Positions 3,911 to 54,643 of a stretch of DNA of 64,000 nucleotides are shown here, in pieces. The notes below the pieces were generated by a model. It was not told the origin of the DNA. It made no database searches and saw only the letters and a list, made by a program, of their open reading frames with translations. The translations under genes were made by a program, and so were the position numbers. This stretch comes from an uncultured Candidatus Micrarchaeota archaeon (GTDB taxonomy: Archaea > Micrarchaeota > Micrarchaeia > Anstonellales > Bilamarchaeaceae), in contig CAILMQ010000013.1 in the NCBI GenBank assembly GCA_903835385.1, forward strand, positions 2,687-66,686, written 5' to 3'. The stretch's first letter is position 1; the number at the start of each line of letters is the position of its first letter.

Positions 3911-4372
3911 ATGGTTGAATGCTGCCCGGAATTCAAGCCCGAGTCATTGGACAGGAAAACGCTGGAATACTCCGACAAGCTTTTTCTCAAGGAGCACTCC
4001 CTGGCGCTGTTCCACATCCCGCTCACCATAAACTCCGCCATGGCGCGCGCGATGAAGATGATAACCGGCGCAGGCGCAATCGTGCCGGACGGGGTCATGC
4101 TCTTCCATGAGAAATCCATGTGGGGCACGGACATCTACATAGAGGTGAAAAAGGACGTTCCGGGTGCCAGGATGGAGCGCATAAGCGGGACCTTCATGAC
4201 AAAGGTCTACGAGGGGGATTACAAGCAGATGATGGGATGGATGAAGGACATGCAGGCATATGTCACAAGCAAGGGCAGGACAATGAAGGACTTGTACGCG
4301 AACTACCGCTACTGCCCGGCGTGCGCGAAGAAGTTCGGGAAGAACTACGTCGTGCTGTTCGCGAAGGTGTGA
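3911..4372 (+). CDS. hypothetical protein with C-terminal CPAC zinc-ribbon-like motif
   Basis: 153-aa ORF in an intergenic-sized gap. No recognisable family. Confidence 0.45.
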   Translation: MVECCPEFKPESLDRKTLEYSDKLFLKEHSLALFHIPLTINSAMARAMKMITGAGAIVPDGVMLFHEKSMWGTDIYIEVKKDVPGARMERISGTFMTKVYEGDYKQMMGWMKDMQAYVTSKGRTMKDLYANYRYCPACAKKFGKNYVVLFAKV

Positions 4373-5152: not shown

Positions 5153-5187
5153 ATATATTTATACTATAAAAGTATATAAATATACCT
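5153..5187 (-). promoter_or_regulatory. AT-rich inverted repeat (TATATTTATAC-TATAAAA-GTATAAATATA), candidate operator/TATA region of the toxin-antitoxin pair
   Basis: Near-perfect palindrome within a few nt upstream of the antitoxin start. Confidence 0.4.
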
Positions 5188-5297
5188 ATTTTGTATGAAT
5201 GTGCTCACTTTTTGCTCAGTTCCGGATATTCTTCGGGTATGTCCCGGAAGCCTCTTTCGAAGCGCCGTAGATACCGTAGCTGCGGGATGCGTATTCT

Positions 5298-7442: not shown

Positions 7443-8510
7443 ATGCAGAAGTTCTTTGACGACACGCCGTCCGGTTCCTCCATAATAGCGCGCGAGGACG
7501 TGCTGCTTCCGCTTTACCAGCCCGACGAGCTCCGCTACCGCGGCAACGAGCTGCAGGTCATGGCCGACGCGGTGAAGCCGCTACTGCGCAAGCGCGAATG
7601 CATGAATCTTCTCATCCACGGCAAATCCGGCACGGGAAAAACCTCCTGCGCAAAGGCCATAATGAAGCAGCTTTCCGAGCATTCGCCGGTTGTGCTGCCT
7701 GTTTATGCAAACTGCTGGGAAAGCCCGACTCGGGCAGCGGTCTTCGGAAGGATAATAGAGGCAATGCAGCTTCCGGTCCCGAGACGGGGGCTTGCCGCGG
7801 ACGAGCTGTTCGACCGCGTGCTGCAATACGTGAAGAACTATTCGCGCCCGGTCCTGCTTGTCCTGGACGAGCTGGACGGCCTGGAAGAGCAGGAGCTCCT
7901 GTATTCGGTTGCGCGCGCGAACGAGAGGCCGGGCATCCTGTTCGGCATAACGGGCATAACGAACAATCCCGCATTCCTCGCCAAGCTCGACCCGCGTGTG
8001 CGGAGCTCGCTCCGCTTCTCCGAACTCCGGTTCTCCGAATACAGCGAGGAGCAGCTTTTCTGGATACTCAAGGACCGGGCTACCGCGGGCCTGGCTCCGG
8101 GCACCTGGGATGAAAAACTGCTCACGAAAATCGCAAGAGGCGTGGACGACGGCTCTGCGCGCATCGCGCTCGAAAAGCTGTGGAAGGCCGCGCGGCATGC
8201 CGAAGACCTTGCCAGGCCGAAAATCACGCTGCAGGATTTGGCGGATTCTGAAGCTGAAAACGAAGCCGCGGTCAGGCCCGGAGTTGCGCTCAGCGAAACC
8301 GAATCCAAAATAGTCGAGCATCTGCGCAACGGAAGCAGGACCACGGACGAGCTCTACGACCTGCTCAAATCCGGCAAGACAAAAAGGATGTTCATGAATT
8401 ACCTGGCCAGGCTGGAGGAGAAAAAGATAATCCAGATGGACGCGCAGCCGGAAACCGAAGCCAGCGGCAGGTTCGGGCCCAAGCTCTGCCGCCTATGCCC
8501 GAAGCTTTGA
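7443..8510 (+). CDS. orc1: Orc1/Cdc6 replication initiator
   Basis: Walker A (HGKSGTGKTSCAK), Walker B (LVLDELD) and a C-terminal winged helix. Typical archaeal Orc1/Cdc6 organisation. Confidence 0.9.
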   Translation: MQKFFDDTPSGSSIIAREDVLLPLYQPDELRYRGNELQVMADAVKPLLRKRECMNLLIHGKSGTGKTSCAKAIMKQLSEHSPVVLPVYANCWESPTRAAVFGRIIEAMQLPVPRRGLAADELFDRVLQYVKNYSRPVLLVLDELDGLEEQELLYSVARANERPGILFGITGITNNPAFLAKLDPRVRSSLRFSELRFSEYSEEQLFWILKDRATAGLAPGTWDEKLLTKIARGVDDGSARIALEKLWKAARHAEDLARPKITLQDLADSEAENEAAVRPGVALSETESKIVEHLRNGSRTTDELYDLLKSGKTKRMFMNYLARLEEKKIIQMDAQPETEASGRFGPKLCRLCPKL

Positions 8511-10788: not shown

Positions 10789-10822
10789 GGTTTAAATATG
10801 GCATTCCCGATATAAAAACCAT

Positions 10823-12607
10823 TTGGTGGGAACCACGATGAAAAACAACATAAAATCAGCGGTCGGGCTGACATCCTACTTCTTCTCATTGCCTCCCGCG
10901 CACGTGGTCGTGCTCGCCATGCTCGTCATCGCGTGCCTGTTCGGCCTGGCGCTCAATTTCTGGAAATACTCCGGAATCGACCTGCTACGGCAGGGCGCCA
11001 TGGACGGCGCCATTCTTCTCGCCATGCCCGCGCTCCTCACGTGCGCCGTGATAAAGCTCATGATACGCAAGATGCCGTTCCGCAGGATTGCGGCCGTTGC
11101 CCTGGCAGGGGAGGCGATATACGGGCTTGCCTACATGGGCAGCTTTCTGCTGGTCGGCGTGAACGCCCTGATGTCCGAGCTCATCCTGCTCCTGGGGGCG
11201 GCGCTGGTGTTCATACTCTGGTACGCCATAGCCAGGCTGGTATTCATACTCAAGTACCGCTCCGTCCTGTTCGCCATAATCCAGCTCCTGTTCTACCTGG
11301 TGTTCCTGGCCAACAGCCACATATTCGTGTTCGGAACCGACTCCCTCGCCTACGTCGCGAAATTCTACATGGCCTCCTTCGTGCTCTTCGGGGCGCTCTA
11401 CATATTCTTCCTCATCATCAACGCGCCCATGAAAAAAAGCTTCGGCTTCAGCTCCACGGACGCATTCACGTTCTTCATAAGCCAGTGGCTGTACCACAAC
11501 AAGGACCTGGAGAAAGCACTGGAAAGCGTGGGCGCCAGGGTAAGGACGCTCGTCACCGTGATGGGCTTCCAGAGGGAGAAGGGGAATGTCTACTTCGCCA
11601 CCCCCCTCGTGCACTTCGGGCCGTTCGGCAATCTGGGGGGGAGCGAATTCTCCTACCTCATAGCCGACGGGCTGGAGAAGAAGCACGGCGGGAAAGCGTT
11701 CGTCTTCCATGGCACCGTGACACACGACCTCAACCCGGTCTCCGCTTCCCAGCTGGACAGCATCCTTTCGGCATGCGACGGATGCATCGCGGAAACCCCC
11801 TTCCGCGACGCCCGGGTCTCGCTCCTGAAAGGGAAGGAAGCCGAATGCAGGGCCGAAGGGTTCAGGATCAACGACTCCGCGTTCATCGGGCTGAGCAGGG
11901 CGCCATACGTCACGGAGGACATAAACTTCGGCCTCGGGCTATCCCTGATGAAGGAGGCGGAGAAGAGGGCGGAGGTCGCCATGGTGGTGGACCAGCACAA
12001 CGCCGAGACCGGCGACATAACGAGCTTCGAGCCTGGCGACATTGTCGGCTACAACTACATGAAGGCGGTGGAGAACGCGCTTGCGAAGGACGCCAAAAAA
12101 GGGAACGCGCTGAAAATCGGGGTGTCCTGCCGCTCCTTCGATTCCAGCCACGTGGGAAAGGCCGGGATAAAAATCGCGGTCCTGTCCTCCTCCCCGGAAT
12201 ACGTCCTCGTGCTCATTGACTCCAACGGCGTCACGCCGGAATACCGCGATACTATAGAGGCTAAAGTCAAAGAGGTTGGCAGGAAGCTCGGCAGGGACTG
12301 GGAGGTGGGCATCTGCACCACTGACACGCACCAGACCAACGTGGTGCGCGGAGTGCTCAACCCCCTCAAGGAGGAGGACCACATGATGGCCGAGATAGCC
12401 TCCGGCGTGGAGGAGGCTGCAAAGGACATGGCTTCGGCGAAGTTCTTCGCAGCGAAGAGATGGTTCGACGTTGACGTCATCGGCGCGAAGCAGTCAATCG
12501 AGATAGTGTCCACAGTAAATTCAATCGTCGCGGTCGCCAAGATAACGCTTCCCCTCATCCTGATAGGCGCGATGCTGCTCCTGCTGGCGATACTGACGAA
12601 AATATGA
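10823..12607 (+). CDS. large polytopic membrane protein (DUF2070-like archaeal family)
   Basis: 594 aa. N-terminal multi-TM block, a soluble domain, and a terminal TM segment. The family assignment is from memory and not certain. Confidence 0.5.
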   Translation: MVGTTMKNNIKSAVGLTSYFFSLPPAHVVVLAMLVIACLFGLALNFWKYSGIDLLRQGAMDGAILLAMPALLTCAVIKLMIRKMPFRRIAAVALAGEAIYGLAYMGSFLLVGVNALMSELILLLGAALVFILWYAIARLVFILKYRSVLFAIIQLLFYLVFLANSHIFVFGTDSLAYVAKFYMASFVLFGALYIFFLIINAPMKKSFGFSSTDAFTFFISQWLYHNKDLEKALESVGARVRTLVTVMGFQREKGNVYFATPLVHFGPFGNLGGSEFSYLIADGLEKKHGGKAFVFHGTVTHDLNPVSASQLDSILSACDGCIAETPFRDARVSLLKGKEAECRAEGFRINDSAFIGLSRAPYVTEDINFGLGLSLMKEAEKRAEVAMVVDQHNAETGDITSFEPGDIVGYNYMKAVENALAKDAKKGNALKIGVSCRSFDSSHVGKAGIKIAVLSSSPEYVLVLIDSNGVTPEYRDTIEAKVKEVGRKLGRDWEVGICTTDTHQTNVVRGVLNPLKEEDHMMAEIASGVEEAAKDMASAKFFAAKRWFDVDVIGAKQSIEIVSTVNSIVAVAKITLPLILIGAMLLLLAILTKI

Positions 12608-12617
12608 CGATGGGGAA

Positions 12618-13337
12618 TCAGCGCTTTCCAGAACGTTTGGTTATTTTCCGATTGAAGTCCCAGTTCCCATTCAGATGGTACACTTCCTCTTCTATGCGTT
12701 CCCTGCATCTGCCGCAGAAATCCAGCATCGGCTTCACGACAAAGTCGGCGAGGTCGGCAATGCTGAAATATTCCTGCATCAGGCAGGCGCGGTCCGTGCA
12801 TTCCATGAAGCCCTTCCCGGGCCCGCGATAAGTGTCAATGAGCACATGCCCGATGGTGTTGCGGACGAGCATTTCCACGGTGCGCTCGGCAAGTTCCGCT
12901 TCCACGCGATACTCTCCCCCCACCATGTCGAATCCGAATGCCTCGCGCACCCCTGCCACGGTGACGATCGCGCCGCTCCGGAACCTGCTCCTGCCTGGTA
13001 TCTCCTGCTGCGCCCCGTTACCGGAATCGTCGAGTAAAAATATCCGTTTGCCAATCAGGACGATTCCGGCGACTCCGGCCCTTTCCTCTGCAAGACTGAC
13101 GCTCTCGTCAAACCTTGTTGATAAGAATCCGGGATTTACGTATGCCTGTCCGCTTGAGCCGAGCGCATCCCGGAGTTGCGCGGCCATCTTGACATTTTGA
13201 AACGCCTGCTCGCCCAGCGGCATGGCCTCGGTCCTGATGCCGTATTCCGCGAACCTGTTGATGGCCCTGGTCGCGGCAGCCAGCTCCCCCTTGCCCAGAT
13301 TTCCCTTGTGAATCAGCCTGAATGTGGGTGCAGTCAT
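12618..13337 (-). CDS. amzA: archaemetzincin-like zinc metallopeptidase, paralog 1
   Basis: HVLIDTYRG...C..RACLMQE...FCGRCRERI matches the archaemetzincin signature (HExxHxxxxxH, Cx4CxM, CxxC), here with HTIGHVLI. Parallels Archaeoglobus AmzA (...FCRECASKI). Confidence 0.75.
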   Translation of the reverse strand: MTAPTFRLIHKGNLGKGELAAATRAINRFAEYGIRTEAMPLGEQAFQNVKMAAQLRDALGSSGQAYVNPGFLSTRFDESVSLAEERAGVAGIVLIGKRIFLLDDSGNGAQQEIPGRSRFRSGAIVTVAGVREAFGFDMVGGEYRVEAELAERTVEMLVRNTIGHVLIDTYRGPGKGFMECTDRACLMQEYFSIADLADFVVKPMLDFCGRCRERIEEEVYHLNGNWDFNRKITKRSGKR

Positions 13338-13339
13338 GA

Positions 13340-13380
13340 ACCTATAGTGTTATAGAAATAATATTTAACTGTTTCGCTCG
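13340..13380 (-). promoter_or_regulatory. conserved promoter block upstream of amz paralog 1 (TATA-like TTAAATA about 26 nt from the ATG)
   Basis: cctatagtgttatagaaataatatttaactgtttcgctcgg. The same ~35-nt block precedes all three amz paralogs. Confidence 0.55.
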
Positions 13381-13384
13381 GATT

Positions 13385-14095
13385 TCAATCGTATTCCTCG
13401 GAGTCCCGCCTCAGCGTTTCCACTTCCATCCGTATGCGCCTTGCGCATTCCTTGCAGAAATTCAATCTGGCTTTCACGGCATGCTCCACGAAATGGGCAA
13501 TATCGGATGTCTCCTGCATCAAACACTGAGGGTGGTTGCAGTGCCATTCTTCCCTCAGATTCTCCATGCTCCTGCCATAGCTCTCGATGAGCACGTGCCC
13601 CACCTCGTGGCAGACCGCGAGTTCCACCGCGTCAATAGCGCTCTTCTGGTGCATGGCATATTCACCGGTATCCGGCCTGAAGCCGAAGAACTCGCGCAGC
13701 CCTGACACCGTGACGAACGCGCCGCCCCGGTACCTGCCGGCACCAATCACCTTTTGTTCAGCTTGGTCCCTGGGGCCGTGGACTGATAGGAGTATCGGCT
13801 CGTAGGTCAGGCCTATGCCTATGATGGGGCTGGTCTGCTGCATGACGTCTGCAAATTCGGTGCCGAGCCTCGGCATCAGGAAATTGGCGGAATTTATGCG
13901 CACCGGCCCGTCCGGGCCCAGGGTTTCCAGAAACTGCCTGCCCATCTTGACCTTCCGTACCGCACTCTCCCCCATTGCTATGGCGTCGCAGGTGACACCG
14001 TATCCGCGGAACCTGTTGATGGCGCTGCATGCGGCTTTCACCTCCGCGGGGCTCAGGCCAAGCCTGTGGATGAGCCTGAACATGGGTTCCTTCAT
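13385..14095 (-). CDS. amzA: archaemetzincin-like zinc metallopeptidase, paralog 2
   Basis: HEVGHVLIESYG ... HCNHPQCLMQE ... FCKECARRI. Confidence 0.8.
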   Translation of the reverse strand: MKEPMFRLIHRLGLSPAEVKAACSAINRFRGYGVTCDAIAMGESAVRKVKMGRQFLETLGPDGPVRINSANFLMPRLGTEFADVMQQTSPIIGIGLTYEPILLSVHGPRDQAEQKVIGAGRYRGGAFVTVSGLREFFGFRPDTGEYAMHQKSAIDAVELAVCHEVGHVLIESYGRSMENLREEWHCNHPQCLMQETSDIAHFVEHAVKARLNFCKECARRIRMEVETLRRDSEEYD

Positions 14096-14096
14096 G

Positions 14097-14135
14097 GGTA
14101 TATTGTTATAGAAAGGATATTTAACTGTTCTGCTG
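14097..14135 (-). promoter_or_regulatory. conserved promoter block upstream of amz paralog 2
   Basis: gggtatattgttatagaaaggatatttaactgttctg. Confidence 0.55.
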
Positions 14136-14155
14136 CCCGGAGGTTATGGAAGAAT

Positions 14156-14842
14156 TCAGAATTCCGCCAGCAATCCCAGTTCCGTCTCTATGCGCTGCGT
14201 GCATTCCCTGCAGAAACCCAATCCGGCCTTCACGATGCGCTCTATGAAATCGTCCAACCCGGAGTTCTCCTGCATCAAACAGGAGCGGTACGGGCAGTGC
14301 CCCTGCTCTTTCGGGCTGTCCACGCCCGGGCCATGGCTTTCTATGAGCACATGGCCGGCCTCGTGCAGGACCGCGAGCTCCACTGCAAGCAAGGCGGTTT
14401 GCTCGTCCTTCTCATAACGCATTGTCCTGCTGTTGAAATCGAAGGCCCTGCGCAGCCCTGACACCGTGACAATCGCGCCGCGCTGGAATCTGCTTGTGCC
14501 CAGCACCTCCTGCTGCTCCGTGCCATTTTTGATGACGAATGCCTGTTCATCGGTCAAACCGATGCCTATGGCGCCCAGCCTTTCCGCTATGAACTGGCGG
14601 AATTCCGTGCCTGGCACTACCCTTAGAAATCCAGTGGAATCCAGGCGCAACGGGCCGTTGGAACGCAGGGCATCCAGGAACTGCCCGCCCATCCTGACAT
14701 TTTGTATTGTTTCCTCGTCGATTGCCCGGACATCGTATCTGACCTTGTATCTCGCGAACCTGTCCATGGCACGGGATGCGGCTGCCATCTCCAAATGGGC
14801 GAGTCCTGGCCCGCAGAGAATCCTGAACATGGGTCCTTTCAT
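14156..14842 (-). CDS. amzA: archaemetzincin-like zinc metallopeptidase, paralog 3
   Basis: HEAGHVLIESHG ... HCPYRSCLMQE ... FCRECTQRI. The motif is HExxHx5H, Cx4CxM, then CxxC about 20 residues later. Confidence 0.8.
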   Translation of the reverse strand: MKGPMFRILCGPGLAHLEMAAASRAMDRFARYKVRYDVRAIDEETIQNVRMGGQFLDALRSNGPLRLDSTGFLRVVPGTEFRQFIAERLGAIGIGLTDEQAFVIKNGTEQQEVLGTSRFQRGAIVTVSGLRRAFDFNSRTMRYEKDEQTALLAVELAVLHEAGHVLIESHGPGVDSPKEQGHCPYRSCLMQENSGLDDFIERIVKAGLGFCRECTQRIETELGLLAEF

Positions 14843-14844
14843 AA

Positions 14845-14885
14845 GTATATTGTTATAGAAAGGGTATTTAACTGTTCCGTTACCG
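14845..14885 (-). promoter_or_regulatory. conserved promoter block upstream of amz paralog 3
   Basis: agtatattgttatagaaagggtatttaactgttccg. Confidence 0.55.
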
Positions 14886-14900
14886 GGCGCTTATGGGAGA

Positions 14901-15743
14901 TTACGCCCCGACCATCATCCTGAGCACGTCCCGCATTCCCGGGGCGAAGCCCATTATCATGAGGACGAGCGCGACGTATCGCTTGTCATCTGCGCTCATG
15001 TCCTCCTTCATGACGAAGTAGGCGGCCGCGAACGACACCAGCACCTTGACCAGGTAGAACGTGAAATACGTCCCTCCGAGCGTGCCGATGCCGGACGCGA
15101 GGACGTGCTGCTCCCCGTATTGTATGCCGCTTATCCTGGAGAATATGTCTATGACGAAGAACGTGGCAGCGCCGTCAAGGGCATGGCCGGCGACAATGCC
15201 GGTTATGACTTTGTCCTTGAAATAAACGTAGGCGATTGCTGCCGGAACGGCGGCCAGCAGGACGACCGGGACCGCATACAGGGCATACTGCATGAACGGG
15301 AGCAGCAGCAGGAAATGCGGGAGCCAGAGCGCTGCGCCCACAAGCCAGAGCCATTCCATTTTCTTCATGCTATAGAGCGCCGCCATGGAGATGAAGAGCA
15401 GCGCCGCGGTGACTATGTATATTCCGGGCGAGGCGGTGAGGAAGCCGTAATCGTAGATATGGGAATTGAGCACCAGCGAATGGAGGGGGCTTACCGGCTT
15501 GAACACCCCGCTGTCAATGGCATCCGTGACCACGCGCACGGTAGAGCCGAAAAGCACGAAGCTCAGGACGCCGCAAACGAAGCGCCCGTTGAACTCGATT
15601 TTCGTTTTCAGGTAGCGGTAGAGCAGATAGACCGCCGCTATTGCGATGATGGCGTAGGTTACGGTATTCACGACGTTGTATCCTTCGTGCGAGCGCAGCG
15701 GCTCGAGATAATAATCATTAATAAAGCTATCCAGTGTAGGCAT
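14901..15743 (-). CDS. polytopic membrane protein (DUF63-like archaeal family)
   Basis: Start chosen at MPTLDSFINDYYLEP. The ORF-track N-terminal extension to 16121 is Arg/Pro-rich and overlaps the rpr2 gene. Multi-TM protein. Confidence 0.5.
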   Translation of the reverse strand: MPTLDSFINDYYLEPLRSHEGYNVVNTVTYAIIAIAAVYLLYRYLKTKIEFNGRFVCGVLSFVLFGSTVRVVTDAIDSGVFKPVSPLHSLVLNSHIYDYGFLTASPGIYIVTAALLFISMAALYSMKKMEWLWLVGAALWLPHFLLLLPFMQYALYAVPVVLLAAVPAAIAYVYFKDKVITGIVAGHALDGAATFFVIDIFSRISGIQYGEQHVLASGIGTLGGTYFTFYLVKVLVSFAAAYFVMKEDMSADDKRYVALVLMIMGFAPGMRDVLRMMVGA

Positions 15744-17261: not shown

Positions 17262-19382
17262 ATGAGATCCCCCGTGTATGTCGTCCTGCTTGTTTTGTTA
17301 GCCTCAGGGGCGGCCCTGTCCTTCCGGGCGGAGGACTACCTCTATGCGAACGAGAGCGGGGCGGGCGTCACCTACTCCAACTTCATGCAGGACGGGGGCA
17401 ACTATTCCCTGGTGAAGATAAACGGCAACGGGGCGTTCCTGCTGCTCAACGGAGCACCGCTCCAGGACCAGGCGAAGATGACCCAGGTCCTCCACGATTA
17501 CTACGTGCAGACGTACTTTCCGACCACGGCCGAGATAAGCCAGATCAGGGATTACCTGGTGAAATACAACGACAGCAAGAACAACGGGGAGATGGTCTCC
17601 ATGCGTGGCAAGGAGGACAACGCCTGCAGGTACAACACGTTCATAGACGGCCACATCAGGATAGGCAACGGCTCCGTGCATTGCTCGGATAATGCGAGCT
17701 GTAATATCGCCGCAGCCCTGCTCTACAGCGCGTATAATGAAGCTTTCGGATGGGGCTCCCCGACACAGGTGCTCGAGCCGATAAAGACCTACGCATTCGC
17801 GACCTACGGCTCGGAAGCGCTCATTGCCCAGGACTTCGCAGCATTGGATTCCATTAACGAGGATAACGTGTACAGCAACCTCAAATCAGTCCAGGATTCC
17901 ATAGCTCCGCTGCGCCAGGACGAATCCGACATAGAAACCAGCGTATTCCGCTTCCCGAGGCTCGACGACCCAGACGATGTGGAAGCATGCAGAGGGGTGT
18001 GCTACGGCCTGTGCCCCCCGTTAAACTTCGACTCCACGCAGCTTGACGGCCTGGATTCCAGCCTCGTTGCAATCATCTCCAAGGTCACCCCGCTGGCCTC
18101 CCAGGCCACGACCGGAGCCGCCATCTATGCCAGCACAGTTGCAAGGCTGGAAAAGCATGCCGAGGAAATGAACGCGTCCCACTACTCCGCCATATACAAC
18201 CCGCTGGCCACCAGCGCCGCGGCAACAATAGCATCCGCCGAATCCACCACCTCGCTCATAAAGAACAGTTCGCTCCAGGCGAACCTCTCCGCGCTCCAGG
18301 ACCTGCACAGCGGCATAAACGCCAGCATAAACAGCAGGAACTTCAACACCCTGGACAGGGACCTTGCCCTCTACAGGGCGCTCATCCCGGTGGTGAACAA
18401 CCTTTCCAATGCCACCTTTGCCGTGTACAATGCAAGCATGGACGCCAAGAACCGCGCAGATTCCATAGCCTTCATCCTGGATGCGACGGACCTGGACCCG
18501 CTCGCAAGGGCGGACGCCGACCGGCTGAAGAACAGGACCAGCATGCTCGACGCCAGGTTCTCGAAAGGGCTTGCGGAGCAGGCATACCTGAACCTGACCA
18601 GGAACTATACGGACATCTCCTCGCAGAGCGAGGCGCTCCTCAGGCAAACCCGCGAGAACCCCGGCTCCATGCTCCTGCTCAGCTTCAGGAGTTTCGCGCT
18701 CAAGATAAACCAGGGGCTCGCCGGCACCATAGAATCCGCCAAGCTCATGCCCCTCAACCAGGTGCCGCAGAACAAGATGCAGACGTTCGGCCTGTTTTCG
18801 CTGGCAACGTTCCTCTCGCTCGGCTCCATGTGCCTGCTGGTGTTCCTCTCAATCCTGGTCCTGAGGCAGTTCACCGCCAGGTCGTCGAGATACGCGCTGC
18901 TCGTGCTGTTCCTGCTATCCGTGCTTTCGGTGTCCACCTTCGCGGCCTTCATGTACATATACCTGGACAAGACGTCGAGCCACGCGGACGTGGGGGAATT
19001 CCTGGCGGATATGAAGGCGAGGAACAGCAGCGTGGTGCTGATAGACACCCAGAACGCGTCCCCGCTGGCCGCGGGGCCCATGGCGTCCTGCGGCGATTCC
19101 ATAGCCCGGACCCTGCTTGCGGAAAACAAGACCGTGACCCTGCTTTCGCTCGGGCCGTCCGGCTGCACCCGGCAGTCGGGCCCAGGCTCCGCCGCCTCCG
19201 TCAATGTGACCAAGGAATGGTGCATTGACAGCCTCAACAACGCGTCCAGCGCCATCCTGCTGAACTACTCGGCATATTCGGAAGTCTCGCGGTTCACGGT
19301 GATTTACCAGAACCGCGCGGACATAGAGGCTGGCGTCCCCTACTACAGCTCATGCCCGCTCCCCTCGCTGCTCGGCAAGTGA
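17262..19382 (+). CDS. large secreted/surface protein rich in N-glycosylation sequons, with two C-proximal TM segments
   Basis: Signal peptide MRSPVYVVLLVLLASGAALS, more than 25 N-x-S/T sequons, and a TM pair near residues 505-565. No known catalytic motif. Confidence 0.55.
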   Translation: MRSPVYVVLLVLLASGAALSFRAEDYLYANESGAGVTYSNFMQDGGNYSLVKINGNGAFLLLNGAPLQDQAKMTQVLHDYYVQTYFPTTAEISQIRDYLVKYNDSKNNGEMVSMRGKEDNACRYNTFIDGHIRIGNGSVHCSDNASCNIAAALLYSAYNEAFGWGSPTQVLEPIKTYAFATYGSEALIAQDFAALDSINEDNVYSNLKSVQDSIAPLRQDESDIETSVFRFPRLDDPDDVEACRGVCYGLCPPLNFDSTQLDGLDSSLVAIISKVTPLASQATTGAAIYASTVARLEKHAEEMNASHYSAIYNPLATSAAATIASAESTTSLIKNSSLQANLSALQDLHSGINASINSRNFNTLDRDLALYRALIPVVNNLSNATFAVYNASMDAKNRADSIAFILDATDLDPLARADADRLKNRTSMLDARFSKGLAEQAYLNLTRNYTDISSQSEALLRQTRENPGSMLLLSFRSFALKINQGLAGTIESAKLMPLNQVPQNKMQTFGLFSLATFLSLGSMCLLVFLSILVLRQFTARSSRYALLVLFLLSVLSVSTFAAFMYIYLDKTSSHADVGEFLADMKARNSSVVLIDTQNASPLAAGPMASCGDSIARTLLAENKTVTLLSLGPSGCTRQSGPGSAASVNVTKEWCIDSLNNASSAILLNYSAYSEVSRFTVIYQNRADIEAGVPYYSSCPLPSLLGK

Positions 19383-54493: not shown

Positions 54494-54643
54494 AGCCCTC
54501 GACGAGATTTGAACTCGTGACCTCGTCCTTTTTGCGGCGTTTGACTTGCTTACCTCAGGGCTTTTTCCAGGGTTTTTGCCCGTATAAGGGCGTAAGTCAA
54601 AAAGCCTTACCAAGGACGCGCGCTACCACTGCGCTACGAGGGC
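54494..54643 (-). tRNA. tRNA-Thr (anticodon GGU) with a canonical-position (37/38) intron of about 85 nt
   Basis: Minus strand: GCCCTCG-TA-GCGC-AGTGGTA-GCGC-G-CGTCC-TTGGTA[intron]A-GGACG-AGGTC-ACGAG-TTCAAAT-CTCGT-CGAGGGC-T. All four stems are perfect. Confidence 0.75.

Follow-up and report, generated by a model that had tools for sequence, protein, structure and literature searches.

What does an array of three tandem archaemetzincin-like genes, each preceded by its own copy of the same short promoter block, represent in the genome of an archaeon? Members of the archaemetzincin family occur widely, in archaea as well as in humans (AMZ1 and AMZ2), and we know of no physiological substrate for any of them. 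The array considered here lies in a 64,000-nucleotide (nt) stretch of DNA, hereafter the window, from an uncultured Candidatus Micrarchaeota archaeon, a member of the DPANN archaea (assembly GCA_903835385.1, contig CAILMQ010000013.1), and a preliminary description had taken its genes for three archaemetzincin (AmzA) paralogues, all with an intact zinc-binding signature, co-regulated and diversified in substrate. The reading favoured here, to which a probability of roughly two in three can be given, is a different one: a tandem array specific to its lineage, with promoters of its own and fast evolution, whose genes belong to a far-diverged branch of the archaemetzincin family.

The genes themselves are as first described in number, orientation and length, being minus-strand open reading frames (ORFs) of 228, 236 and 239 amino acids. 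Paralogue A (14156–14842) and paralogue B (13385–14095) resemble archaemetzincins and have a predicted catalytic site that is complete, and paralogue C (12618–13337) is a predicted pseudoenzyme. Their guanine-plus-cytosine (GC) content by codon position (GC3 0.70–0.75, GC2 about 0.43) is in line with that of neighbouring genes called with confidence; A, B and C are real genes with a coding composition typical of the window, and the plus-strand ORFs that overlap them are high-GC by-products. At the protein level they are only 37–44% identical to each other, and their coding DNA is at most 66–78% identical even across the best-conserved 89-nt stretch. Thus, they are old paralogues rather than a collapsed or expanded assembly repeat, an artefact that had been entertained as a possible source of the promoter-block identity and is hereby ruled out. 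A Kyte-Doolittle scan found no apparent signal peptide or transmembrane segment in any of the three, and they are best pictured as soluble, probably cytoplasmic, putatively zinc-binding proteins.

Relationship to the archaemetzincins

The family to which these proteins belong becomes visible only at depth. Word-indexed homologue searches returned 3–7 proteins, and it took an exhaustive search with a profile, through 1.84 billion cluster representatives (E ≤ 1e-3), to recover 104 relatives (again cluster representatives), mostly full-length at about 200–220 residues. All retrieved source names read 'hypothetical protein, Candidatus Micrarchaeota archaeon'; the family is small, unannotated and placed in Micrarchaeota by every available source label. 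When a profile of 10 paralogues (A3) was aligned by hhalign with one of 50 more distant family members (A7), the two matched with a probability of 100% (E=8e-45, 205 columns); A7 in turn matched the archaemetzincins of known structure 3ZVS, 4AXQ and 2X7M with E-values of 2.7e-14 to 1e-12, and a 94-member profile (A6) matched 2X7M with E=3.1e-13. Six of 10 individually scanned family members also pass the Pfam M54 (PF07998) cut-off, with 27–32 bits. The AlphaFold2 (AF2) model of A (predicted local distance difference test, pLDDT, 73.5; predicted template modelling score, pTM, 0.79) gave one significant Foldseek match in the PDB, AmzA 2X7M (E=1.5e-7; template modelling scores 0.55/0.68), and the model of C (pLDDT 79.1) has its secondary-structure elements in the same order as that of A. 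Homology to the solved archaemetzincins is therefore detectable, but transitively, via the distant family members.

Several results weigh against this assignment. Against the Pfam M54 cut-off of 24.4 bits, A scores 14.0, B 15.8 and C has no match; against the cut-off of 145 of the NCBIfam archmetzin model (NF033823), A scores 20.4 bits, B 16.1 and C again has no match. Direct searches of the PDB matched only the four-cysteine (Cys4) segment of 2X7M (E about 0.02), and the N-terminal subdomain could not be aligned to AmzA by HMMER from the window clade alone. In the model of A, an insertion of about 11 residues, which brings the putative third zinc-binding histidine towards the site, is poorly resolved, with a pLDDT below 50 at residues 170–180, and the model of C found no significant Foldseek match in the PDB. 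Taken with the transitive homology, these results place A, B and C in a far-diverged, lineage-specific branch of the archaemetzincins (M54) and not in AmzA proper. Thus, the first identification stands as far as homology goes, through the transitive profiles and the fold of A, and fails as to membership of AmzA, for which all three fall under the curated cut-offs. A Micrarchaeota family known only as hypothetical proteins can now be recognised as such a branch.

The likeness to AmzA (MEROPS M54; PF07998; 2X7M, 3ZVS, 4AXQ, 3LMC) extends to the overall plan: a single domain of about 200 residues with an HExxH active-site helix, a third histidine before the first cysteine, Cx4CxM (the Met-turn) and a distal CxxC that completes the Cys4 site, besides the match of the predicted A fold to 2X7M. 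The array differs from AmzA, apart from its scores, in lacking the metzincin glycine, in carrying the insertion, in a longer spacer before CxxC and in being multi-copy, fast evolving and often degenerate at the catalytic site. A partial parallel might be struck with Thermococcus kodakarensis, an archaeon that has two archaemetzincin-family genes, AMZ-tk (TK0512) and TK1178; one of them represents a subfamily of low identity, specific to its lineage, for which zinc-dependent activity has been demonstrated (PMC4681839). Both proteins, however, keep the full HExxHxxGx3Cx4CxMx17CxxC, and neither a tandem array nor a common promoter is described in the available part of that source.

The catalytic site and its loss

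The three paralogues differ sharply in what they retain of the metal site. In A it reads HEAGHVLIESH (H160-E161-xx-H164), followed by H182-C183x4C188xM190 and C211xxC214; in B it reads HEVGHVLIESY, with tyrosine at the x5 position, followed by WHCx4CLM and CKEC; and in C it reads NTIGHVLIDTY, with the first histidine and the catalytic glutamate lost and a glutamate replacing the histidine before the first cysteine. The HExxHx5H string, said to be retained by all three, is hence found in A alone. The Cx4CxM and CxxC motifs, by comparison, were correctly ascribed to A, B and C alike, the latter after a spacer of about 20 residues (17 in AmzA), and the noted resemblance of FCRECTQRI to Archaeoglobus fulgidus FCRECASKI is seen in the alignment.

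Measured against the archaemetzincin fingerprint HEXXHXXGXXHCX4CXMX17CXXC (PMC3427221), A and B deviate in the missing glycine, in the second-to-third histidine separation (17 residues versus 5) and in the CxxC spacer, and C additionally lacks the first histidine, the glutamate and the third histidine. The signature of the wider metzincin clan (HExxHxxGxxH/D with an invariant glycine and a Met-turn) is not matched either: the CxM methionine is present in all three, the glycine in none. Its position is taken by isoleucine (HVLI) in A, B and C; the wider family consensus retains the glycine (HELGHVFG). The window clade is likewise set apart from other family members by its insertion, which is about 11 residues long and falls between HExxH and the His-Cys pair.

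Across 94 family representatives, the complete set of H-E-H plus the histidine before the first cysteine is found in 59 and the site is degenerate in 35. All 59 HExxH members have that histidine, 23 of the 35 degenerate members lack it (Fisher p=1.7e-13), and all four cysteines are kept in 89 of the 94. The x5 histidine, formerly taken for a conserved zinc ligand, occurs among these 94 only in A and is ruled out in that role. Since the histidine directly before the first cysteine covaries with HExxH and fits the published fingerprint, it is likely to be the third zinc ligand, as in AmzA.

In keeping HExxH, this third histidine and the methionine, A and B are probably zinc-dependent hydrolases. 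C, having lost the first histidine, the glutamate and the third histidine, is a predicted pseudoenzyme, and seemingly a conserved one that retains the structural Cys4 site and the methionine: its orthologue in OY970229.1, a 1.57-Mb Micrarchaeota chromosome assembled from a metagenome, is likewise degenerate (NAAGH), with the same three residues lost. Of the five copies in that genome, a single one has the complete site. The family may accordingly be described as one that recurrently splits into copies predicted to be catalytically intact and copies predicted to be catalytically dead. In two more distant loci, the same chromosomal slot (4624–5939 in L086, 4632–6448 in L079) holds an intact copy and then a degenerate one (RDIGR...GGDC in L086, RELGH...GNC in L079), and a rough neighbour-joining tree puts these second copies within a mostly degenerate basal clade. 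This hints at an ancient pair of presumptively active and inactive copies in more distant Micrarchaeota.

These patterns bear on the view that all three proteins are ordinary AmzA paralogues, each able to catalyse, which arose by duplication to diversify substrates and are regulated together. It can draw on the weak M54 matches of A and B, on the alignment of the Cys4 segment to 2X7M together with the fold of A, and on the promoter block common to all three; it has to contend with scores under every curated threshold, the three residues missing from C, the absent glycine and inserted residues, and a separate family with only Micrarchaeota labels, and must be considered very improbable. The annotation is corrected to that extent: the array genes are not three equivalent AmzA proteases.

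A precedent for a copy without catalysis is CarG of Myxococcus xanthus, an inactive archaemetzincin homologue that acts in transcription (PMC3427221). The CarG-like combination of substituted catalytic residues and four retained cysteines is found in C, which, together with the 35 degenerate members, might be understood by this example; C could be a non-catalytic paralogue acting as a partner or regulator. The comparison has its limits, as only a glutamate-to-glutamine change is involved in CarG and three of four site residues are lost in C, CarG is bacterial and single-copy, and no CarD- or HMGA-type partner was identified for C.

The precedent can be carried further, to a family in which no member is proteolytic and all are zinc-ribbon scaffold or regulatory proteins like CarG, which may bind or control their own promoter block. 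The high share of degenerate representatives beside a nearly invariant Cys4 site, the single complete site among the five OY970229.1 copies and the persistence of a promoter element with the gene family across distant genomes all lean this way. There is also biochemical background of the same tenor, which weighs against hydrolase activity in A and B too: some assays of archaeal AmzA saw hardly any protease activity or none at all, and MkAmzA showed no detectable proteolysis (PMC3427221). Yet the four site residues are perfect in 59 of 94 representatives, and the covariation of the third histidine with HExxH indicates that selection has kept the metal site functional in most lineages; moreover, no DNA-binding domain was detected in A, B or C with Pfam and NCBIfam. 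CarG itself is not known to bind DNA. A wholly non-proteolytic family is hence unlikely, and the favoured reading, with probable hydrolases and a non-catalytic paralogue side by side, is retained.

Turnover of the array and its promoter block

The array occupies a fixed chromosomal slot between a DUF63/AliA_AliB gene and a DUF2070 gene, in which copy number varies: three in the window, five in OY970229.1 (L001), two in a contig of the Joint Genome Institute (JGI; L002) and two in each of the more distant L079 and L086. Three further loci (L078, L084 and L085) have one family copy each in another genomic context, and a locus search with a narrower alignment had found only OY970229.1. The query whether relatives have one or several copies, raised at the outset, is thus answered for this slot. 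In a neighbour-joining tree, A, B and C each form a clade that holds orthologues of different genomes (among them L1_4B and L2_2B for B, and L1_5C of OY970229.1 for C), and the A-B-C order is conserved, from which it follows that the paralogues predate the species split. Each gene can be seen as a self-contained unit of about 750 bp, comprising a promoter and a presumably leaderless ORF, and the copy number would change by duplication of such units and recombination. In locus L001 of OY970229.1, the final 52 nt of the DUF63/AliA_AliB gene recur with 100% identity (4307–4358 and 5160–5211), the repeat separating array gene X, which comes first and is the most divergent paralogue, from the second gene. 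Rather than an old duplication, a recent insertion or recombination event seems to have left this trace while reshaping the array.

Within the slot, the proteins change several-fold faster than their neighbours at comparable synonymous divergence (dS). Amino-acid identity between the window and L001 or L002 is 46–59% for array orthologues and 79–90% for flanking ones; over all pairs, the ratio of nonsynonymous to synonymous divergence (dN/dS) is 0.40–0.72 in the array and 0.10–0.33 in the flanks, with dS at 0.32–0.85 and 0.21–0.65, respectively. Most of the excess between orthologues falls within the N-terminal 140 residues; the HExxH-Cys4 part is more constrained, and in the A pair of L001 and L002, N-terminal windows reach a dN/dS of about 1.0–1.4. 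Protein change would accordingly be fastest mostly in the N-terminal subdomain. This is a pattern between orthologues; the divergent N-terminal 130 or so residues once proposed for the paralogues are not evident in their comparison, where identity is 40–42% in the N-terminal and 37–48% in the C-terminal part. With dN/dS below 1 overall, the data fit relaxed constraint as well as diversifying selection; that relaxed constraint alone can explain the raised values is a point against the favoured reading. Substrate diversification, proposed from the outset, may be one outcome, as fast evolution, copy-number change and repeated loss of the catalytic site fit either diversification or relaxed constraint.

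The promoter block presents a different picture, being the best-conserved DNA repeat of the array (repeat family D2). Its copies lie on the minus strand at 14846–14881 for A (TTAAATA at 14865–14871, TCTATAACA at 14851–14859, the ATG 3 nt after the block), at 14099–14134 for B (TATA at 14118–14124, TCTATAACA at 14104–14112) and at 13343–13378 for C (TATA at 13362–13368, TCTATAACA at 13348–13356, 5 nt to the ATG). The last two nearly fill the intergenic spacers of 60 nt (A-B) and 47 nt (B-C), one block to a spacer. With up to 3 mismatches allowed, the 31-nt form AACAGTTAAATAnnnTTTCTATAACAnTATA (an example search form is TTAAATANNNTTTYTATAACA) is found at these three places of the 64-kb window and nowhere else in it, where shuffles give an expectation of 0.00, which bears out the description of one block per gene. 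TTAAATA begins 29 nt before the ATG in A and B and 31 nt before it in C, with its centre about 26 nt away, the distance first given and one that fits an archaeal promoter.

Not all of the block is special to the array. Most window genes have a TATA-like box 26–32 nt before the ATG, so that leaderless mRNAs are seemingly the norm in this organism, and a TATA box with an AT-rich stretch before the start is widespread enough in the window to mark both as generic. To this extent the block resembles an ordinary archaeal core promoter (B recognition element, BRE; TATA; AT-rich proximal element; leaderless start). It differs by two additional parts, AACAG towards its upstream end and TTTCTATAACA in the interval from TATA to start, which are absent from other window promoters, and in that the extra element is conserved upstream of the gene family in distant genomes. 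Of the conserved block stressed in the preliminary description, only these two parts are specific to the family.

How well the block is kept is best seen across genomes. Ten copies from three genomes have a mean pairwise identity of 81% over 34 nt, and 13 other (leaderless) window promoters reach 35–50% identity to the block consensus at their best register. Variants follow orthology: C-type copies have ...TATTnTTTCTATAACAC in common, and TTTAAAC is common to the B-type copies in L001 and L002. Vertical descent under selection is therefore favoured, and gene conversion limited to the promoters is unlikely, as the variants are common to orthologues and not to copies within one genome. Further afield, T[CT]TAnnACA stands 7–10 nt before the ATG, just after TATA, upstream of family genes in L078, L079, L085 and L086, whose proteins share about 30% identity with A and whose genomes range from 43 to 62% GC; in that register it was not found upstream of other genes in these four loci. 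The gene family has in this way kept a promoter element of its own across distant Micrarchaeota genomes. The second copies in L079 and L086 lack the element (in L086 that copy lies close behind the first), so that one promoter per gene appears to be derived in the window clade.

Lying upstream of the predicted start, the element would act as DNA; an RNA element in the spacers was ruled out, since none of the three spacers folds better than its shuffled versions (z 0.1 to 0.8). The pattern suggests that a dedicated transcription factor recognises the family-specific part; it would bind between TATA and start, a position that would suit a repressor, and the co-regulation of the array proposed earlier would then be expected. 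Other results pull away from such a regulator. A search for a palindromic operator found no convincing dyad in the block (at best 7 of 16 pairs), no candidate regulator gene stands next to the array, where the neighbours are membrane and housekeeping genes, and the block may be no more than one particular strong core promoter. A scan of metagenome contigs with CAKTTAAAYNNNNTTTYTATAACA gave 74 stretches, of which only L024, from the same organism as L002, encodes family members; the remainder are taken as chance matches, and the search for a regulon came to nothing in these contigs.

The main alternative for the regulatory part builds on these last points. It sees in the block a strong generic core promoter, copied along with each duplication unit and read by no specific regulator, while redundant gene copies drift towards pseudogenes under relaxed constraint. 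The commonness of TATA and AT-rich stretches among window promoters, the lack of dyad symmetry and of RNA structure, the overall dN/dS below 1 and the fact that orthologous promoters of other genes are well conserved between these genomes too all speak for it. Less easily accommodated are promoters still 81% identical on average among paralogues that are older than the species split and whose coding DNA is only about 60–70% identical, the persistence of TCTAnnACA upstream of members about 30% identical in genomes of such different GC content, and the intact ORFs and Cys4 sites of all copies. It may be given something like one chance in four, and the favoured reading of a lineage-specific array under its own promoters is preferred to it.

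A more far-reaching scenario would make of the array an enzyme/pseudoenzyme module in the arms race of a DPANN symbiont, wherein A and B might cleave fast-changing host, viral or self targets, and C might serve as a decoy, an inhibitor or a CarG-like co-factor feeding back on the family promoter element. This is a long shot; if true, it would offer the first physiological handle on archaemetzincin function. PADLOC gave no match that would annotate the array as anti-phage defence. Independent of that scenario, a family that expands and contracts at one slot while evolving several times faster than its neighbours, with a family-linked promoter element and putative active/inactive pairs, provides a direct experimental handle.

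Genomic setting

The slot is bounded upstream by the DUF63/AliA_AliB membrane protein (14901–15743, minus strand; Pfam PF01889, E=2.4e-44) and downstream by the DUF2070 membrane protein (10838–12607, plus strand; Pfam PF09843, E=1.9e-100), which is convergent with the array. AliA_AliB has recently been implicated in archaeal lipoprotein lipidation (PMC12462473). In the window, L001, L002, L079 and L086, the array adjoins the DUF63/AliA_AliB gene or lies within two genes of it. A functional tie was nonetheless rated weak despite the recurrence of this adjacency in five loci, because the array proteins have no membrane segments, gene order as a whole is shared among the loci, and further members of the family are found in other places.

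The DUF2070 gene is divergent from that of NMD3, and their very short spacer (10789–10837) contains two TATA boxes facing opposite ways; it hardly differs between the window, L001 and L002. An Orc1/Cdc6-type AAA+ protein (AAA_22, Cdc6_lid) is encoded at 7443–8510 on the plus strand, about 4 kb from the array, and for this reason a replication origin may be nearby. On the other side, a 706-residue ORF (17262–19382, plus strand) with no Pfam or PADLOC match is about 67% identical in L001 and L002, below the other flanking genes. Finally, an Rfam tRNA match at 54494–54643 on the minus strand (55 bits), for which ARAGORN reported no tRNA, spans 150 nt for a 71-position model and is probably an intron-containing archaeal tRNA.

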